Shown piece by piece: positions 4,965 to 55,136 of a stretch of DNA of 55,136 bases. Under the pieces are notes generated by a model. That model was given only the letters and a program-made list of their open reading frames with translations, was not told where the DNA came from and searched no databases. The translations under genes were made by a program, and so were the position numbers. This DNA comes from Dictyostelium purpureum (taxonomy: Eukaryota): assembly GCF_000190715.1 (NCBI RefSeq), contig NW_003519547.1:1-55136 (forward strand), written 5' to 3'. How positions within the stretch are numbered: the stretch's first letter is position 1; each line of letters begins with the position of its first letter.

Positions 4965-5255
4965 AAATATTGTCTCCTTGTTTTATAAACATAAATATAT
5001 TAATATATTAATACAGTATTTTTTTTTTTTTTTTTTATAAATAAATATAGTTAAGATGTTTTGAAATTTATTTTATATTTTTTTGAATTATTGAAATTAA
5101 AATTATTGAAGATAAATAAAAAAAAAAAATTTTTAAAAAAGGGGGTCAAAACTTTTGCGAAATACTGTATTTAAATGTAAAAACAATTTAAAATTTTGAT
5201 AAATTATTTATTTTATATATAAATATAAAAAATAATACAATTGAAGTCATCAGTT

Positions 5256-5341
5256 GCTCCATTAACTCAGTCGGTTAGAGTGAAGTACTTATAGAATAGT
5301 ATGATATGCTTTGGTCCCGAGTTCGATTCTCGGATGGAGCA
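5256..5341 (+). tRNA. tRNA-Ile (anticodon UAU) with a 12-nt intron
   Basis: Cloverleaf folded by hand. Acceptor stem GCTCCAT/ATGGAGC with discriminator A; D-stem ACTC/GAGT with loop AGTCGGTTA; anticodon stem AAGTA/TGCTT (one G-U pair); loop CTTATAA with TAT at positions 34-36; intron GAATAGTATGAT between positions 37 and 38; T-arm CCGAG-TTCGATT-CTCGG. This matches the intron-containing eukaryotic tRNA-Ile(UAU) architecture. Confidence 0.85.
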
Positions 5342-5937
5342 ATACCTTTTAAGAAGCTTTTATCTTTCCGGTGATCTTTCCGGTGATTTGAAATATGTAG
5401 ATGATTTAAAAAAAAAAAAATTAATATAAATATTTTAATCAAGAGATATGCATCGAAACATTCCCACCCAAATTACAGGTTTTTTATTTATTTTGTACTA
5501 TTTTCTACTCTAAAACCACTTTATAAAGAATTTCATCATGATGTTTAAGAATAAAGAACATCTTTAACAATTTCTAATAACAAATATAATTTCCAAAATT
5601 TGATCGGATAAATAACTGTTAGAAGAGCAAAAAGGTTATAATTTTAGAAAATAGACTATAATGCCTCATTTATTTTGCCCCTAATTGAATATGTATAACC
5701 ATTAGAAGATAAACATGGAAAGGATAAGTATGACAATTAGTTTTCAAATGCCACACCAAAACAGTATTAATTCTTTGTTAAAATAAAAATAATAAAAATA
5801 TTTATCTATTACAGTACCCGAGATATATATTTATACCCTGATGATATTAAATATTTATTTTATATTATTTATTTGAACAACCCAAAACAATTGATATTAT
5901 TAATAAATAATTTTTGAATCAAATCCTTATATTTTAA

Positions 5938-5995
5938 TTAGGGAATAAAATTAGTCTAAGTTTGACAAAAAAAAAAAAATTTCTAAGTTTTCCCC
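5938..5995. repeat. Direct-repeat copy 1 of a terminal-repeat-like motif (TTAGGGAATAAAATTAGTCTAAGTTTGAC...A-run...TTTCTAAGTTTT)
   Basis: Near-identical sequence recurs at 6588-6650 in the same orientation. The motif begins TAGGG like hAT/Ac terminal inverted repeats and brackets the hATC coding remnant. Confidence 0.55.
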
Positions 5996-6124
5996 TCACC
6001 CACACCACCCACTTGACTAATTTTTTCATTTTAAAAACTTAAAAAAAAAAAAAAAAAACTTAAAATTACATTATTTTTTTGTATGAAAAAAATTAAAATT
6101 CTTGAGCAATTTTATTTAATCATA

Positions 6125-6476
6125 CTATTTTTGAAATATTTGAATAATAAAAATGACAGAGTTTTCGACAATATCTACTCTTGAAATGTTTACCCATTCC
6201 CTTAATAACACACATTGTTCTATTCTTTCCCAAACCAAATTTGATCTGTTGTCTGTAACCAACAACTTAGCACCCGAAAATGTTCTTTCAATTTCAACGG
6301 ACGAAGAAGCAACTGAAAGTACAATTGAATATAATGTTGGATATTCAATACTATTTTCTTTCCAATTTTTTTTGACTAGATCTTCAATTGAATTTCTATG
6401 ATCTAAACTTTCTTCTAAGTATTTTTGGATTTCTTTATACTTTGAAATATATGTATTTGTTTCTTTTTTTTCAAGG
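6125..6476 (-). mobile_element. Remnant of a hAT-superfamily transposase: C-terminal hATC dimerisation domain, ~115 codons ending at TAG 6125-6127; the 5' part is missing or degenerate.
   Basis: Minus-strand translation: ETNTYISKYKEIQKYLEESLDHRNSIEDLVKKNWKENSIEYPTLYSIVLSVASSSVEIERTFSGAKLLVTDNRSNLVWERIEQCVLLREWVNISRVDIVENSVIFIIQIFQK*. It matches the hATC consensus W...YP.L..lA...L.ip.SS...ER.FS.ag.l.t..R..L....ve.l..l..w. No ATG and stops upstream, so the track only lists antisense plus ORFs (6153..6401, 6388..6594). Confidence 0.7.
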
Positions 6477-6587
6477 GGAATTGAAAATTGAATTAAAGGT
6501 TCATCATAGTTACTCTATACTATCTCTTTGGCAAATTAGGTATCATTTGAAAGATTGTTTTTTTCTCTATATTTTTTTGTTGTATAA

Positions 6588-6650
6588 TAATTAGGGAATA
6601 AAATTTAGTTTATTTTTTGAAAAAAAGGGGTTTCTAAGTTTTTAATTAAA
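6588..6650. repeat. Direct-repeat copy 2 of the TAGGGAATAAAATT... motif
   Basis: ttagggaataaaatttagtttattttttgaaaaaaaggggtttctaagttttt matches 5938-5995. Confidence 0.55.
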
Positions 6651-6689
6651 AGGTGTTCAAAATTTTTATTTATATTCAACAGATGTATA

Positions 6690-7610
6690 TTCTTGAATGT
6701 GTATAATGAAATAAATTTTATAAAATTATGGTAAAAAAAATCCTTATTTGTTTTAATGCTAAATAAACCTTGATTATATTTTAATGATACACAATTGTTG
6801 ATATTTTTATATGCAATTAAATTCTTGATATTTTTAATTATCCATAATATTTGATATATAATGAATGAAACACAATACTTGATAATTTTTAATGATCCAT
6901 AATATTTAATGTTCTTGAATGTAACGCAATACTTGATATGTTTTATTGATCCAATAAAATAATTAATTTATAATTATTATACAATAAATCTTGATTTTAT
7001 TGAATGATCCTATCCAATTGTATATTCTTGAATGAGAATAATAATAATAAATTTTATTAAAAAATAAATTATTGATATGTTTTAATGCTAAAAAACCCTT
7101 GCTATGTTTTGATTATATATATATTAAAGCTTGATATGTTTTAATGCTAAAAAATCCTCTATATGTTTTGATAATATTTTTTTTTTTTTTTTTTTAATGA
7201 TATGCTTTAATAATCTAAAATAATTATTTTGATCCAATAAAAAGATAGCTTTAATGCTAAAAATCCTCGATAGTTTTAATGCTAAAAAATCATTTATATT
7301 TTTTAATGCTAAAAATCTTTTATATGTCTTAATGCTAAAAAATCCTGGATAGCTTTAATGCTAAAAAATCCTCTATAGTTTTAATGCTAAAAAATCTTTT
7401 ATATGTCTTTATAATGATATAAAATTATGGTATCAAAATAAAAAAAAAAAAAACTATAGTTGAATTATAATAATTAAATGCAAAAAAATCCTCGATATGC
7501 TTTAATGCTAAAAAATCATTGATGTGTTTTAATGCTAAAAATCCTCGATATGTTTTAATGCTAAAAAATCCTCGATATTTTTTGATAATATTTTTAATTA
7601 TTTTTTATTT
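6690..7610. repeat. Degenerate tandem array of ~28-31 bp units (core TTGATATGTTTTAATGCTAAAAAATCCTCGATATG and variants with TGATCCA / AATGCTAAA / TTGATAT motifs)
   Basis: Visible periodicity: ...tttaatgctaaaaaatcctcgatatgctttaatgctaaaaaatcattgatgtgttttaatgctaaaaatcctcgatatgttttaatgctaaaaaatcctcgatatttt... (about 30 units). Confidence 0.85.
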
Positions 7611-7619
7611 TTTATACTA

Positions 7620-8060
7620 TTAGCCACTCTTTGTAAAGAGTGTTTCCAGCTCTACCACGGGGAGGTTAGTATATTAGAGCCGAATGGTTAATTATGTATC
7701 CAACCACGCAGAATACATAATTAACCACCACTTACCTGAATGTATATATTTGTGAATTGTTTTTATATATTAGTAGTTAATTATGTATCCCACAACGCAG
7801 AATACATAACTAACCACCATATTGATAATAGAATGAAATGAAATGTAATGGGTGAATAAAAAAACAGCAAATAAATGTAGTGGGTGAGAATATTAGAGCC
7901 GAATGGTTAATTATGTATCCCACCACGCAGAATACATAATTAACCACCATATTGATAATAGAATGAAATGAAATGTAATGGGTAAATAATTAAAATAACA
8001 AATAAATGTAGTGGGTAAAAAAACAACAAATAAATGTAATGGGTGAATAAAAAAACAAAC
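7620..8060. repeat. Complex repeat block: three copies of a perfect 14-bp-stem hairpin (GGTTAATTATGTAT-N13-ATACATAATTAACC) embedded in ~115-bp units, plus repeated AAATAAATGTA(A/G)TGGGT(G/A)A motifs
   Basis: Hairpin copies at ~7686-7727, ~7775-7816 (one arm substitution) and ~7905-7946. The ~115-nt unit gttaattatgtatcccacaacgcagaatacataactaaccaccatattgataatagaatgaaatgaaatgtaatgggtgaataaaaaaacagcaaataaatgtagtgggtga is duplicated at 7775-7890 and 7908-8010. Confidence 0.8.
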
Positions 8061-8229
8061 AAATAAATGTAATGGAAATTTGACTTGACAAAGATAAAAT
8101 TTTTTAATGCACTTGTTTCTTGTTGGTGTTGCTAAATAGTCCTTGGTATATTTGGATATTACACAATAGTTTATATGTTTATTTTTATTTTTATCTATAT
8201 TTATATTCTATTTCTTTCAAATTTGATTT

Positions 8230-8990
8230 CTATACTTGATATTTTTGTGTGATCCATATTACTTAATATTTTTTAAATGCTATATAATATTTGATATTTT
8301 TTATGATCCATAATACTTTTTATTTTATAAATGCTAAATATTTGATACTTTAACATGATCCATATTACTTGATATTTTTGTATGATCCATATTACTTTTT
8401 ATTTTATCAATAATACTTACCAATAATCATTACATTCAATAAAAAAACAAAAGATAATTGATTGAAAACTTAATTGAATGATAAATAATATTTGATATTT
8501 TTTAATGATAAATAATACATGATATTTTTAAAAGATAAATAATACTTGATATTTTTTAATGATAAATAAAACTTTATATGTTTAAATGCTAAATAATACT
8601 TGAAAATTTTAAATGATTCATAATATATGATATTTTTAATGATAAATAAAACTTGATATGTTTAAATGCTAAATAAATATTTAAATGCTAAATATTACTT
8701 GATATTTTAAATGGTAAATAATACTTGATATTTTTGTATGATCCAGGTTATTTGATATTTTTTAAATGCTAAATAATACTCGATATTTGTTTGATCCATA
8801 TTACTTGATATTTTTTATGCTAAATAATATTTTTGATTTCTGTATGATCCAAAATACTTAATCAATTTTTTATTTACTTGTATATTATATATTATAATTG
8901 ATTTTTTTTATTATCACACTACATTTTCCAAAATATTTAATATATTTTTTATTATCACGCTGCATTTTCCAAAATATTTATTTATATTAT
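8230..8990. repeat. Second degenerate tandem array (~30-bp units such as TACTTGATATTTTTGTATGATCCATATTAC and AATGATAAATAATACTTGATATTTTTTAATG), followed by two 40-bp copies of TTTTTTATTATCAC(A/G)CT(A/G)CATTTTCCAAAATATTTA
   Basis: Direct reading; shares the TTGATAT / AATGCTAAAT / TGATCCA motifs with the 6690-7610 array. Confidence 0.8.
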
Positions 8991-9122
8991 TTTTTTTTTT
9001 TTTTTTTTTTTTTCTTTTAATTTTATTTTAAATCAAATATAAATATTTATTAATTTTTAAATAATTTTTTTGAAATTATTTCTTTTTCTTTTTTTTTATA
9101 GCTTTTAATAAAATTTTATATA

Positions 9123-9159
<37 letters not shown>

Positions 9160-9169
9160 GAGGCAAAAA

Positions 9170-9385
9170 AATCATTTTTTTGTTTTTTTGAAAAAAAACC
9201 CCCAAAAGTTTTAAGGCAAAAAAACCCCCGATAGTTTTTTGGCTAAAAAACCCCCGATAGTTTTAAGGGAAAAAAAATCTTTTAATTATTTTAAGGCAAA
9301 AAAACCCTGGAAAGTTTTTTTGCAAAAAAACCCAAGAAGGTTTTAAGCCAAAAAAACCCCCGGGAGCTTTAATGCTAAAAAAATC
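9170..9385. repeat. G/C-substituted version of the tandem unit (TTTTAAGGCAAAAAAACCCCCGATAGTTTT, ~7 units), ending in one canonical AT version (gctttaatgctaaaaaaatc)
   Basis: ggaggcaaaaaaatca...aaaaaaacccccaaaagttttaaggcaaaaaaacccccgatagttttttggctaaaaaacccccgatagttttaagggaaaaaaaatc...gccaaaaaaacccccgggagctttaatgctaaaaaaatc. Confidence 0.8.
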
Positions 9386-9745
9386 TTTTATATATTTTAG
9401 ATTAAAAATTTAATTTAAAATTAATTAATTAATTAATCTATAACTATTTCCTAATTTATTTAAAACATCAATCCCAAAATAAGTAAAAACTTGTATTGCA
9501 GAAAAAAATGTAGATCTGCTACAATCAAAATTGGTAATAATTTGAAACAGGGGAGGTTTTTTTTTTTCAAAATTTTTTATTTTTCAAATAAATTAAACAC
9601 ATCTTCCTTTTAAAGAAATCATTTTTCCATTTATATTATTTTATTATAATTCATTTCATAATTGATATGTGGAAAAGGAATAAAGCAAGAATTTAGTAGT
9701 TCATTATATGATAATGAAATTCGTATGATTGTTGAATGAAAATAC

Positions 9746-10139: not shown

Positions 10140-11922
10140 TTAATCAATATTTACAATTTGTTTTTCTCTGTTGTGATTATTATTATTATTGTTATTATTT
10201 ACACTTGAGTTTATATTTCTATAGCTAATGTTTTGTTTTGTTGGTGTTTGTTTAGTTGGTGTTTGTTTAGTTGGTGTTTGTTTAGTTGGTGTTGATTCTC
10301 GAAGATATGATATTTCCTCATCGTTAAATGTGCTATCTTGACTTTTATATCGAAAATTGTTATGGTTTATATTATGATTATTGTTTTTATTATTATTATT
10401 ATAAGATGAGGCAATTGTTGGAGATGTTTGTCGTGGGGTACCATTGTTGATATTATTATTGTCCATGTTGTTAATATAAAAATCTCTAAATAAAGCCTTT
10501 ATATCTTCTACAGATAATCGACAATTATCAATAAATTCGAGGGTGTCAAAACTATCTGATAAAATAATATTACTATTGATTTTTTTTGTATCTTGCAATG
10601 CCATGATTCTTTCTTCAATGGTATCTCTCATAACGAATCTTTTGATTTTTAAATCACGAGTTTGATTTAAACGGTCAACTCTTCCAATAGCTTGTTCTTC
10701 AACAGCAGAGTTCCAATAAGGGTCGCACATGTAGACCATGTTAGCTCTATGTAAATTAAGACCAACGCCACCACATTTTAACGAGATTAACATAACTCTA
10801 GGGCCACCACTTTCCCTGCTAAATTCTTTAATGATACTTTCTCTTTTTTTAAGTGGAACTTTACCATCATATCTACAATAATGTTCATCTAAATTCCAAC
10901 CATTATGTTTAAAACATTCCTCAATTAAATCTAAAAATCTGGTCCATTGTGAAAATACTAAACATTTAAATTGATTTTTCCCTTCTGGCAATGGTAGTTT
11001 GCTTAGTTCTTCGTCTCTTTCCTTTTCAATTTGCTTTTGACTCTTCTTCTTTGGTGTTGGCACTTTCTTTTCTTTTGATTTTAATTTCTTTTTCTTTGGT
11101 TCATTTATTGTAAATTCTTTTTCAAACTCTTCTTCATCTTCGGAATTAATTAATTCATCAAAACTATTGTTGATTTTGGTTCTGTTTCTGGTTGTTGATG
11201 ATTCTGATGATTCTGATGATATTGATGATTTTAGTGGTTTGTATTCATCATCATCATCATCATCATCTATTATATAACTATCATTTGAATGTTCATCTAT
11301 TTCATTATTACTATTATTATTGTTACTAATGCTATTTTTATTTATTTGGAAATCATCGTGGTCATCTTCAATATAAGAATAATTGGTATCAACCATATTG
11401 TTTTGAATATCTTCAAAAAGGGCTTTAATTTTAGTTGAATACAATCGGCACTGATATCTTTGAATATTTTCTTGGGCCATTAGTCTTTCGATAGATCCAA
11501 GAATCTCTTTGTCTAATTCTTCTTTTTCTTTTCTAAACTCTTGTTCTTCTTTATCATCTTTCTTTTTTTTGGTAAGGTTTTTAATTTTCTTTATCTTTAC
11601 ACCTTCTGGAATAACATCATTTAAAAGCTCAATCATCTCTTCTGTTTCACTTTTTTCTACTACCTTTACTTTTATTTCTTTTGTGAAACCATTTTTATAA
11701 ATAGTTGAGTCACATCTTTCACATAAAAATGAATTGCACCTTGAAAATATGTTGTCAATACATACTTGGCAATAAATATGGCTACATTTGCTATATAGTA
11801 GGTCTTTAGTTACATCATTACATAAATTGCAAACTTTTTCTTTTTCCAGTTCTGAAATCTTTGGGGCAACCAAAGTAATATGATCACAGCATGTTCTTAG
11901 TCTTGTAATCAACGAAAAAATT
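10140..11922 (-). CDS. SNF2/RING helicase, exon 3 of 3 (RING C3HC4 + helicase C-terminal domain); full protein ~1514 aa
   Basis: After intron 11923-12006 (84 nt): (L)IFSLITRLRTCCDHITLV (the conserved LLRLRQ.C.HP motif of the RAD5 family); RING CNLCNDVTKDLLYSKCSHIYCQVCIDNIFSRCNSFLCERC; helicase-C motifs FSQWTRFLDLIE, LISLKCGGVGLNL, CDPYWNSAVEEQAIGRVDRLNQTRDLKIKRF. Stop at 10140-10142. Confidence 0.8.
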
Positions 11923-30260: not shown

Positions 30261-30263
30261 AAT

Positions 30264-30345
30264 CGACAGCTGCAGGGTTCGAACCTGCGCCTCCGAGGAG
30301 ATCTGATTTCAAGTCAGACGCGTTAGACCACTTCGCTAAGCTGTC
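30264..30345 (-). tRNA. tRNA-Ser (anticodon UGA), 82 nt with long variable arm
   Basis: Minus-strand read: GACAGCT-TA-GCGA-AGTGGTCTAA-CGCG-TCTGA-CTTGAAA-TCAGA-TCTCCTCGGAGG(variable arm)-CGCAGG-TTCGAAC-CCTGC-AGCTGTC-G. Anticodon loop CTTGAAA gives TGA; class-II tRNA with Ser-type D-loop. Confidence 0.85.
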
Positions 30346-30521
30346 AAGTTGTTGAAATTTCTTTATTCGGTTCCTTACAAGGTTTTTTTATTCCATAACA
30401 GGATAAAAAACACATTGTTTGGGCTATAAAATTGAAAGGAAGGTGTAAAAAACCTATTAACTGCTAATCTGGAGTTGGTGTTTGAAAATTAATATACGGG
30501 GTACATAAATTTCAACAACTT

Positions 30522-54975: not shown

Positions 54976-55136
54976 AACACAATATTTCTTTACTAAAAAA
55001 ATAAAATAATTTAAGCGTACAGGTAAAAAATAAAGGTATATATTTAGGGATTAAGATTTTATAAAATTAAAATATTGCTAACAAAAAAACAAATTAAATT
55101 GATATATGAGTGATATCACTCTTGCTTATTTCTAAA

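Follow-up and report, generated by a model that had tools for sequence, protein, structure and literature searches.

The DNA analysed here (the window) belongs to Dictyostelium purpureum rather than to D. discoideum and is a complete scaffold, 55,136 nt long and strongly A+T-rich (78% A+T). Our analysis suggests, with a probability that we put at about 0.78, that the DNA beyond a tRNA-Ile(UAU) gene on this scaffold is inactive debris of repeats with at least three unrelated sources, namely the end of a hAT transposon, a minisatellite and an insert bearing a ribozyme-like fold. The first source would be an Ac-like hAT element, of which some 650 bp from the 3′ end lie on the minus strand and comprise the last ~115-130 transposase codons, with the dimerisation domain only; 186 bp of 3′ subterminal DNA, with short motifs of the kind to which transposases bind, and a terminus (TAGGG, at 5939) would also belong to it. 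The second would be a minisatellite, with about 70 units of 26-27 bp that all point one way, separate from the hAT element, and the third an insert of about 490 bp within the minisatellite, with palindromic hairpins and, on the minus strand, a fold of the hepatitis delta virus (HDV)-like ribozyme type. If the minus strand is transcribed, its RNA should cut itself 5′ of G7681. This insert could derive from the 5′ end of a retroelement or from a piece of a self-processing repeat transcript. The observations of an earlier note on this DNA stand after small corrections of coordinates, as does its reading of a dead, repeated hAT element; its proposals of an undescribed lineage, and of arrays forming the subterminal zone of that element, do not.

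The features of the locus, in window coordinates and with their strand, are these:

5255-5342, plus strand: tRNA-Ile(UAU) gene, with anticodon TAT at 5290-5292 and a 12-nt intron at 5294-5305
5927-5992, plus strand: direct repeat copy A (65 bp), with TAGGGAATAAA at 5939-5949, a putative hAT 3′ terminal repeat, read inward
5939-6124, minus strand: putative 3′ subterminal untranslated region, with CTAAGTTT at 5956 and 5983 and AAACTTA at 6035 and 6056
6125-6514, minus strand: transposase C-terminal remnant, 129 codons (6514-6128) and a stop (6127-6125), annotated as DICPUDRAFT_80946
6433-6191, minus strand: hATC domain, the span of the PF05699 match
6515-6579, minus strand: truncation zone, with an in-frame stop at 6517-6515 and no transposase homology upstream in any frame
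6580-6643, plus strand: direct repeat copy B (65 bp), with TAGGG at 6592 and CTAAGTTT at 6634, oriented like copy A and putatively another hAT 3′ terminus standing alone
6735-7600, plus strand: minisatellite block 1, of 26-27-bp units with subtypes ...GATCCATAATACT and ...GCTAAAAAATCCT
7681-7612, minus strand: predicted HDV-like self-cleaving ribozyme (70 nt) at the left edge of the interruption of the minisatellite, with predicted cleavage 5′ of G7681
7685-8097, plus strand: hairpin block inside the minisatellite, with palindromes, monomers and a tandem repeat, part of the ~490-bp interruption (7601-8097)
8098-8870, plus strand: minisatellite block 2, of the same unit family as block 1, with subtypes ...GATAAATAATACT and ...GATCCATATTACT
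8904-9158, plus strand: two copies of a 41-bp repeat, then long T tracts at 8990-9029 and 9129-9158
9160-9400, plus strand: minisatellite block 3, of a G+C-richer unit variant (GTTTTAAGGCAAAAAAACCCCCGATA) whose final unit returns to the AATGCTAAAAAA type

A remnant of a hAT transposase

The minus-strand peptide quoted in the earlier note was recovered letter for letter. It matches the Pfam profile PF05699 (Dimer_Tnp_hAT) from end to end (profile positions 1-84 of 84), with an E-value of 9.1e-10 and a score of 38.6 bits (cutoff 21.4); the E-value lies far below the limit (E>0.01) beyond which the earlier note would have abandoned the assignment. That note had placed the domain at 6125-6476, and the frame extends over 6514-6128. 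Among the Hermes transposase structures, too, a profile of the family finds a match, at the very C-terminal end (E=1e-7). The claim that the frame has no start codon and is closed upstream was likewise confirmed, by the stop at 6517-6515, and the stops together with the PF05699 match bear out its reading as the C-terminus of a dead transposase. No Pfam match was obtained at E-values up to 10 in the three minus-strand frames of 6400-7100, and between 5200 and 9500 no open reading frame (ORF) exceeds 82 codons. As judged from the upstream stops and from the same Pfam frames, the locus has neither a BED zinc finger nor a DDE/RNase-H-like catalytic core, and the remnant therefore cannot encode a transposase; with a single end only, it cannot be mobilised in trans either. 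What the locus carries is a fragment of a member of the hAT superfamily, not an element.

The peptide is 100% identical to the hypothetical protein DICPUDRAFT_80946 of D. purpureum, whose UniProt label names a HAT C-terminal dimerisation domain. At least 20 paralogous D. purpureum gene models came up in searches by word index and by exhaustive profile comparison; they fall into 11 clusters on different scaffolds, are 60-89% identical to the window copy and contain no more than ~125 residues of hAT-related sequence each. Six of the paralogs and P0011 read a shifted frame (YFQLLLRPLKLKEHFRVLSCWL...), at which the models of the P0010 group start and which is also open in the window (ORF 6220-6348). 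Two paralogous models are chimeric, their N- or C-terminal sequence being unrelated. A Cys-rich N-terminus is fused to the hAT fragment in P0004 and P0006, and an unrelated tail of 150 aa in P0008. The window copy is among the more degenerate of the family: it has lost three residues (RNV) from the conserved YSIVRNVLSV stretch, has an insertion and is frameshifted near the C-terminus, and its Pfam score of 38.6 bits compares with 64.2 bits for the better-kept paralog P0002. The model DICPUDRAFT_80946 begins with an invented first exon, ‘MII’, because the genomic frame has no ATG, and the Joint Genome Institute (JGI) models that cover the hAT fragments, including P0001, P0004, P0006, P0008 and P0010, look like annotation artefacts. 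DICPUDRAFT_80946 itself is best read as a pseudogene fragment.

A profile search of 1.84 billion representatives found no full-length transposase of this subfamily, only fragments from D. purpureum; the next-best matches beyond this species were generic plant and rotifer hATC domains, at no more than 74 bits. The lack of a full-length transposase is weak evidence, since JGI masked repeats before gene calling (PMC3188802). With at least 20 models on other scaffolds, several of them frameshifted, the proposal of a repeated element rather than a host gene is upheld, and the comparison of copies shows a family of many decayed members rather than a domesticated gene. In the predicted proteome the family survives only as short and often frameshifted C-terminal pieces, as would fit a family that died long ago or a deletion derivative of the Ds kind, though the masking of repeats keeps this pattern from being proof.

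It had been suggested that hAT elements lie outside the known catalogue of mobile elements, and that the fragment may represent an undescribed or ancient lineage of DNA transposons. The absence from the catalogue and the undescribed lineage are both contradicted. The genome paper gives Gypsy, Mariner, MSAT1_Dpu (126 kb) and hAT (105 kb, 9.5% of transposons) as the largest transposon families of D. purpureum (Sucgang et al., 2011; PMC3188802). Since hAT is already listed there, and since DICPUDRAFT_80946 bears its UniProt label, the lineage is not undescribed, and the remnant belongs to the hAT family already counted in that paper. The finding as first submitted consequently matters little in itself, being one decayed copy of a catalogued transposon family. 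The locus does supply a candidate 3′ end, TAGGGAATAAA with CTAAGTTT subterminal motifs, for a dictyostelid hAT family known from one sentence.

The putative 3′ terminus

The TAGGG at 5939 lies 186 bp past the transposase stop, in the correct orientation for a 3′ end. Such an orientation and such a distance from end to stop are typical of hAT elements (Ac/Ds). Elements of the hAT superfamily have short terminal inverted repeats that begin (T/C)A(A/G)NG; the sequence that starts at 5939, TAGGGAATAAA, is present twice but in direct orientation, and it matches 9 of the 11 bases of what we take to be the Ac terminus, TAGGGATGAAA. Within the 186 bp, TAAGTTT/AAACTTA occurs four times, against 0.07 expected from its frequency across the window, and all three occurrences of CTAAGTTT in the 55 kb fall inside the two terminus copies. 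The flanking octamers, ATTTTAAT and ATAATAAT, both fit the nTnnnnAn preference, a weak sign in DNA of 78% A+T.

Copies A and B reach a gapped local alignment score of 51, compared with 23.8 +/- 3.4 (maximum 38) in 300 shuffles, and share an exact 15-mer (at 6591 in copy B) that is restricted to them in the 55 kb. Two bracketing copies in the same orientation had been reported and are indeed present; their TAGGG starts at 5939 and 6592, not at 6588. Their likening to Ac/hobo-type terminal repeats holds in part: 5939 is well placed as a 3′ terminus, but the copies are direct, and the 55-kb window contains no inverted copy of the terminus within two mismatches and no CCCTA to the right of 5940, and thus shows no complete element. 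On its position and motifs, 5939 is probably the true 3′ end of the hAT element, and copy B may represent another truncated insertion, or may have arisen when the DNA was locally rearranged or duplicated.

Two further sequences resemble the terminus. We considered CTATTTCCTAATT at 9447-9459 as a degenerate right-hand terminal inverted repeat (TIR) and rejected it, the agreement being ~11/15, counted by eye and including the shared CCTAATT. About 80 bp from the scaffold end, TTAGGGATTAAGATT at 55044-55058 differs from the hAT terminus by two mismatches, which is at chance level by a shuffle control; a scaffold that ends in a repeat near this point would be unsurprising.

The minisatellite arrays

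Segmentation of the region to the right of the hAT fragment resolved a single family of 26-27-bp units, about 70 in number and in a single orientation, distributed over three blocks. In each unit a variable stretch of 10-11 nt comes after a conserved core, TGATAT(G/T)TTTTAATG. The 19-mer core has 12 matches in the window, against 0.24 expected, all on the plus strand and all at this locus (6745-8673). When 5256-9400 was compared by self-BLAST with the rest of the window, only low-complexity A/T matches were returned.

The earlier note had described tandem arrays of ~30 bp and proposed that they form a hAT subterminal repeat zone. The arrays are real, with a corrected period of 26-27 bp, and the proposed role is contradicted by the distribution of the motif that is enriched in the 186-bp subterminal region: it was found once in the ~2.7 kb of arrays and interspersed blocks (6735-9400). 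Because the hAT subterminal motif is essentially missing from the arrays, they are not a hAT subterminal zone; unit structure and motif counts indicate that they are a minisatellite independent of the hAT element. This minisatellite probably grew by replication slippage or unequal exchange. A T19 run at 7177-7196 was examined as the poly(A) tail of a retroposon and rejected, as it is a T-run expansion within one minisatellite unit.

A possible candidate for the identity of these arrays is MSAT1_Dpu, the Repbase name of an abundant minisatellite of D. purpureum that amounts to 126 kb and was counted beside the transposons (PMC3188802).

A candidate HDV-like ribozyme in the hairpin insert

The minisatellite is interrupted by a block whose hairpin units, noticed previously, could be located as three near-identical palindromes (TGGTTAATTATGTAT-13 nt-ATACATAATTAACCA). 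Those at 7685-7727 and 7904-7946 have 15-bp stems, while that at 7773-7816 is imperfect, with an interrupted stem. They lie within partly duplicated monomers of 90-130 bp, directly upstream, on the minus strand, of the ribozyme candidate, and the block also holds a 28-33-bp tandem repeat (AAATAAATGTAATGGGT...) at 7966-8075. Among the gene models, no other copy of the ribozyme or hairpin block was found when concatenated six-frame peptides were searched at E-values up to 10.

The predicted ribozyme fold is a nested double pseudoknot of five helices. P1 pairs 7681-7676 with 7653-7648 (GGCUCU/AGAGCU, 6-7 bp) and has a G.U at the cleavage site; P2 pairs 7673-7667 with 7619-7613 over a perfect 7 bp (UAUACUA/UAGUAUA); P3 has 3 bp (ACC/GGU) and is closed by L3, UCCCCGU; P1.1 is formed by 2 bp between GG (7647-7646) and CC of L3; and P4, a hairpin, has 7 bp. 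The candidate catalytic C, in J4/2, is at 7623, inside GGCUAA. All the parts expected of the class (P1, P1.1, P2, P3 and P4, the cleavage-site G.U and the C of J4/2) are thus found in the predicted fold, and minimum-free-energy folding recovered its nested helices. A descriptor search gave one match in the window, and the observed helix lengths were reached in 1 of 3000 composition-preserving shuffles. Of the two lines of evidence, this structural one is stronger than the covariance-model scores. No ORF follows the candidate. When metagenomes were scanned with a 21-nt core of the ribozyme, two matches were returned, both G+C-rich, bacterial-looking and unrecognised by Rfam, and these we attribute to chance.

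We regard this HDV-like fold as a good in-silico candidate for a ribozyme. The stronger proposal, that 7681-7612 folds into an active self-cleaving ribozyme belonging to a repeated ribozyme-bearing element or to a dictyostelid satellite transcript, is a tentative one, with the odds somewhat against it. By analogy with the relation of the Pr77-bearing SIDER/NARTc elements to L1Tc, a non-autonomous retroposon yet to be characterised, for instance a relative of NLTR-A, might have its 5′ end at the ribozyme. We found no report of an HDV-like ribozyme in Dictyostelium or other dictyostelids in the searchable literature, and the predicted ribozyme is possibly the only new item at this locus. If the prediction is true, it would be the first reported HDV-like ribozyme from Amoebozoa that we could find and would extend the class to social amoebae; if the ribozyme is active, it would offer a handle on the transcript processing of an abundant minisatellite or retroposon.

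The tRNA gene and its surroundings

The locus occupies an intergenic space of about 5 kb, bounded by a gene for an FNIP-repeat protein on the left and an SNF2/helicase gene on the right, and its flanks are ordinary. The identity of the tRNA-Ile(UAU) gene is supported by ARAGORN in intron mode and by the Rfam tRNA model RF00005 (55.5 bits). In a default run, ARAGORN labels this intron-bearing gene Tyr(ata), a mislabel due to an intron artefact. Whole-window Rfam scans, by gathering threshold and by E-value, missed the gene, and only a scan of 4.4 kb caught it; the missed and mislabelled gene counsels caution with tRNAs called automatically in D. purpureum. A second tRNA gene on the scaffold, for tRNA-Ser(UGA), lies on the minus strand at 30263-30346.

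The block of repeats starts ~590 bp downstream of the tRNA-Ile(UAU) gene, close to the ~600 bp previously given. The intervening DNA (5343-5938) is complex and non-repetitive; within it, 12 bp are duplicated in tandem (ATCTTTCCGGTG, 2.2 copies, 5362-5387), and a run of 13 A (5408-5420) lies 66 bp beyond the gene. Dictyostelid retroelements that target DNA downstream of tRNA genes sit 7-450 bp away from them, with a range of 67-450 bp for TRE3, and D. purpureum carries the tRNA gene-targeting elements TRE3, Skipper-2 and NLTR-A (PMC5006619). The stretch 5343-5938 corresponds to the insertion zone of TRE3 and Skipper-2 in this species and might hold a remnant of a retroelement or a solo long terminal repeat (LTR). 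No coding remnant was recognisable there, so that at the coding level no reverse-transcriptase or LTR sequence was seen 7-450 bp past the tRNA gene. Nothing ties the hAT fragment to tRNA targeting, as it begins ~590 bp from the gene, compared with 7-450 bp for the tRNA-targeting retroelements. The proximity of the two is best read as the sharing of a gene-free ‘safe-haven’ intergenic site in a compact genome, not as targeting by hAT.

Alternative explanations

The rival that fares best sees in the arrays, the hairpins and the ribozyme what is left of a retroelement, or of a non-autonomous retroposon or satellite that carried the ribozyme, inserted past the tRNA gene, with the ribozyme as the 5′ end of its RNA and the hAT fragment as a bystander; we consider it unlikely. 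It would account for the complete predicted HDV-like fold on the minus strand, as HDV-like ribozymes are typically located at the 5′ ends of non-LTR retrotransposons (R2, RTE, L1Tc). The presence of TRE3, Skipper-2 and NLTR-A in D. purpureum also speaks in its favour, as does the fact that the RNase H domain of NLTR-A has been placed in a phylogeny together with those of ingi, L1Tc and other non-LTR elements (PMC5006619). However, neither a reverse-transcriptase ORF nor any other follows the ribozyme, which lies ~2.3 kb from the tRNA gene, far from the 67-450 bp of TRE3 (PMC5006619). The nearby T19 run is an expanded minisatellite unit and no poly(A) tail, the 5′ part of the ribozyme is duplicated along with the sequence upstream of it, and no gene model covers another copy of the block.

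Less probable still is that 5939-9400 is one non-autonomous hAT derivative of an undescribed dictyostelid lineage, with the arrays and hairpins as its subterminal or internal repeats. The second TAGGG copy (6592) does abut the start of the arrays, and the hATC fragment, both termini and the predicted ribozyme are of one polarity; the arrays too are unidirectional, although polarity is undefined for them. Against such a derivative, its termini would be direct repeats, with neither an inverted copy within two mismatches nor a CCCTA right of 5940; CTAAGTTT and AAACTTA are essentially missing from the arrays; and the genome paper already catalogues hAT and a separately named minisatellite (PMC3188802). 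That the hATC frame is a genuine host gene, DICPUDRAFT_80946, encoding a small domesticated hAT-derived dimerisation protein, can be dismissed as very improbable, for although a JGI gene model exists and one member of a paralog cluster carries the label ‘expressed protein’, the model depends on the invented upstream ‘MII’ exon in a frame without ATG, a stop lies 7 codons upstream of the shared sequence, the conserved core has a deletion and the C-terminus a frameshift relative to the paralogs, 20 paralogous models exist, several in a shifted frame, and no orthologue outside D. purpureum rises above the generic hATC level.

We therefore return to debris of at least three unrelated origins as the preferred explanation, and several observations weigh against it or against its parts. 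For the hAT end, the similarity of copies A and B continues for ~12 bp outside TAGGG (9/12 matches), which slightly weakens TAGGG as the exact end. The copy-number evidence is at the protein level only, from gene models. As to the ribozyme, its covariance-model scores, from models that cannot score pseudoknot helices, are below threshold: RF02682 reaches 36.7 bits where the gathering score is 44 (E=2.5e-4 in the 4.4-kb scan and 3.1e-3 in the whole window), and RF01787, at the same site and in the same register, 20.7 bits against 37. Such E-values need caution, for Rfam also reports mir-598 at 11194-11267 on the plus strand, inside the ORF 10140-11912, with E=0.0032 and 33.4 bits against a gathering score of 69. 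This match is almost certainly spurious and calibrates the trust that sub-threshold covariance-model E-values deserve in A+T-rich DNA; because it has an equally small E-value, that of the ribozyme is not decisive alone. The ribozyme descriptor was written after the match had been seen, which limits what its single hit and shuffle frequency can convey. Finally, the first 11 nt of the candidate are duplicated upstream, at 7891-7901, so that no clean boundary of an element coincides with the cleavage site.

Comparison with known systems

The ribozyme candidate shares the nested double-pseudoknot layout that is common to the HDV-like ribozymes of the RF02682 (drz-Fpra-1) and RF01787 (drz-Agam-1) types and to the 5′ ribozymes of R2, RTE and L1Tc. 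It resembles the class in its cleavage-site G.U, its GG/CC P1.1 and a GGCUAA with the candidate catalytic C, and its L3/P3 region reads ACCUCCCCGUGGU where the HDV-like consensus has ACCUCuaCGUGGU. Unlike the known members, it is a predicted fold with a score below gathering, is embedded in a minisatellite and precedes no retrotransposon ORF. MSAT1_Dpu comes from the same genome as the arrays described here, which are minisatellite-like with a 26-27-bp period and ~70 units; that the two are identical is a guess.

Among hAT transposases, that of Hermes (PDB 2BW3, 4D1Q, 6DWW and 8EDG) offers a structural reference: the family profile aligns to its last ~70-85 residues, the C-terminal hATC region (E ~1e-7), and ~85% of a Hermes-type protein has no counterpart at the locus. 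Close comparisons are also offered by Ac/Ds of maize and by the hAT elements counted in D. purpureum (PMC3188802). The locus differs from Ac/Ds in having one end only, in two direct copies, and in being a dead fragment with no BED finger, DDE core, inverted partner or demonstrable 8-bp duplication. It resembles them in its C-terminal PF05699 domain, in short subterminal motifs in both orientations, in a transposase stop ~190 bp from the end, and in the terminus TAGGGAATAAA, which is similar to what is presumably the Ac terminus, TAGGGATGAAA. As with Ds, many internally deleted or truncated copies survive.

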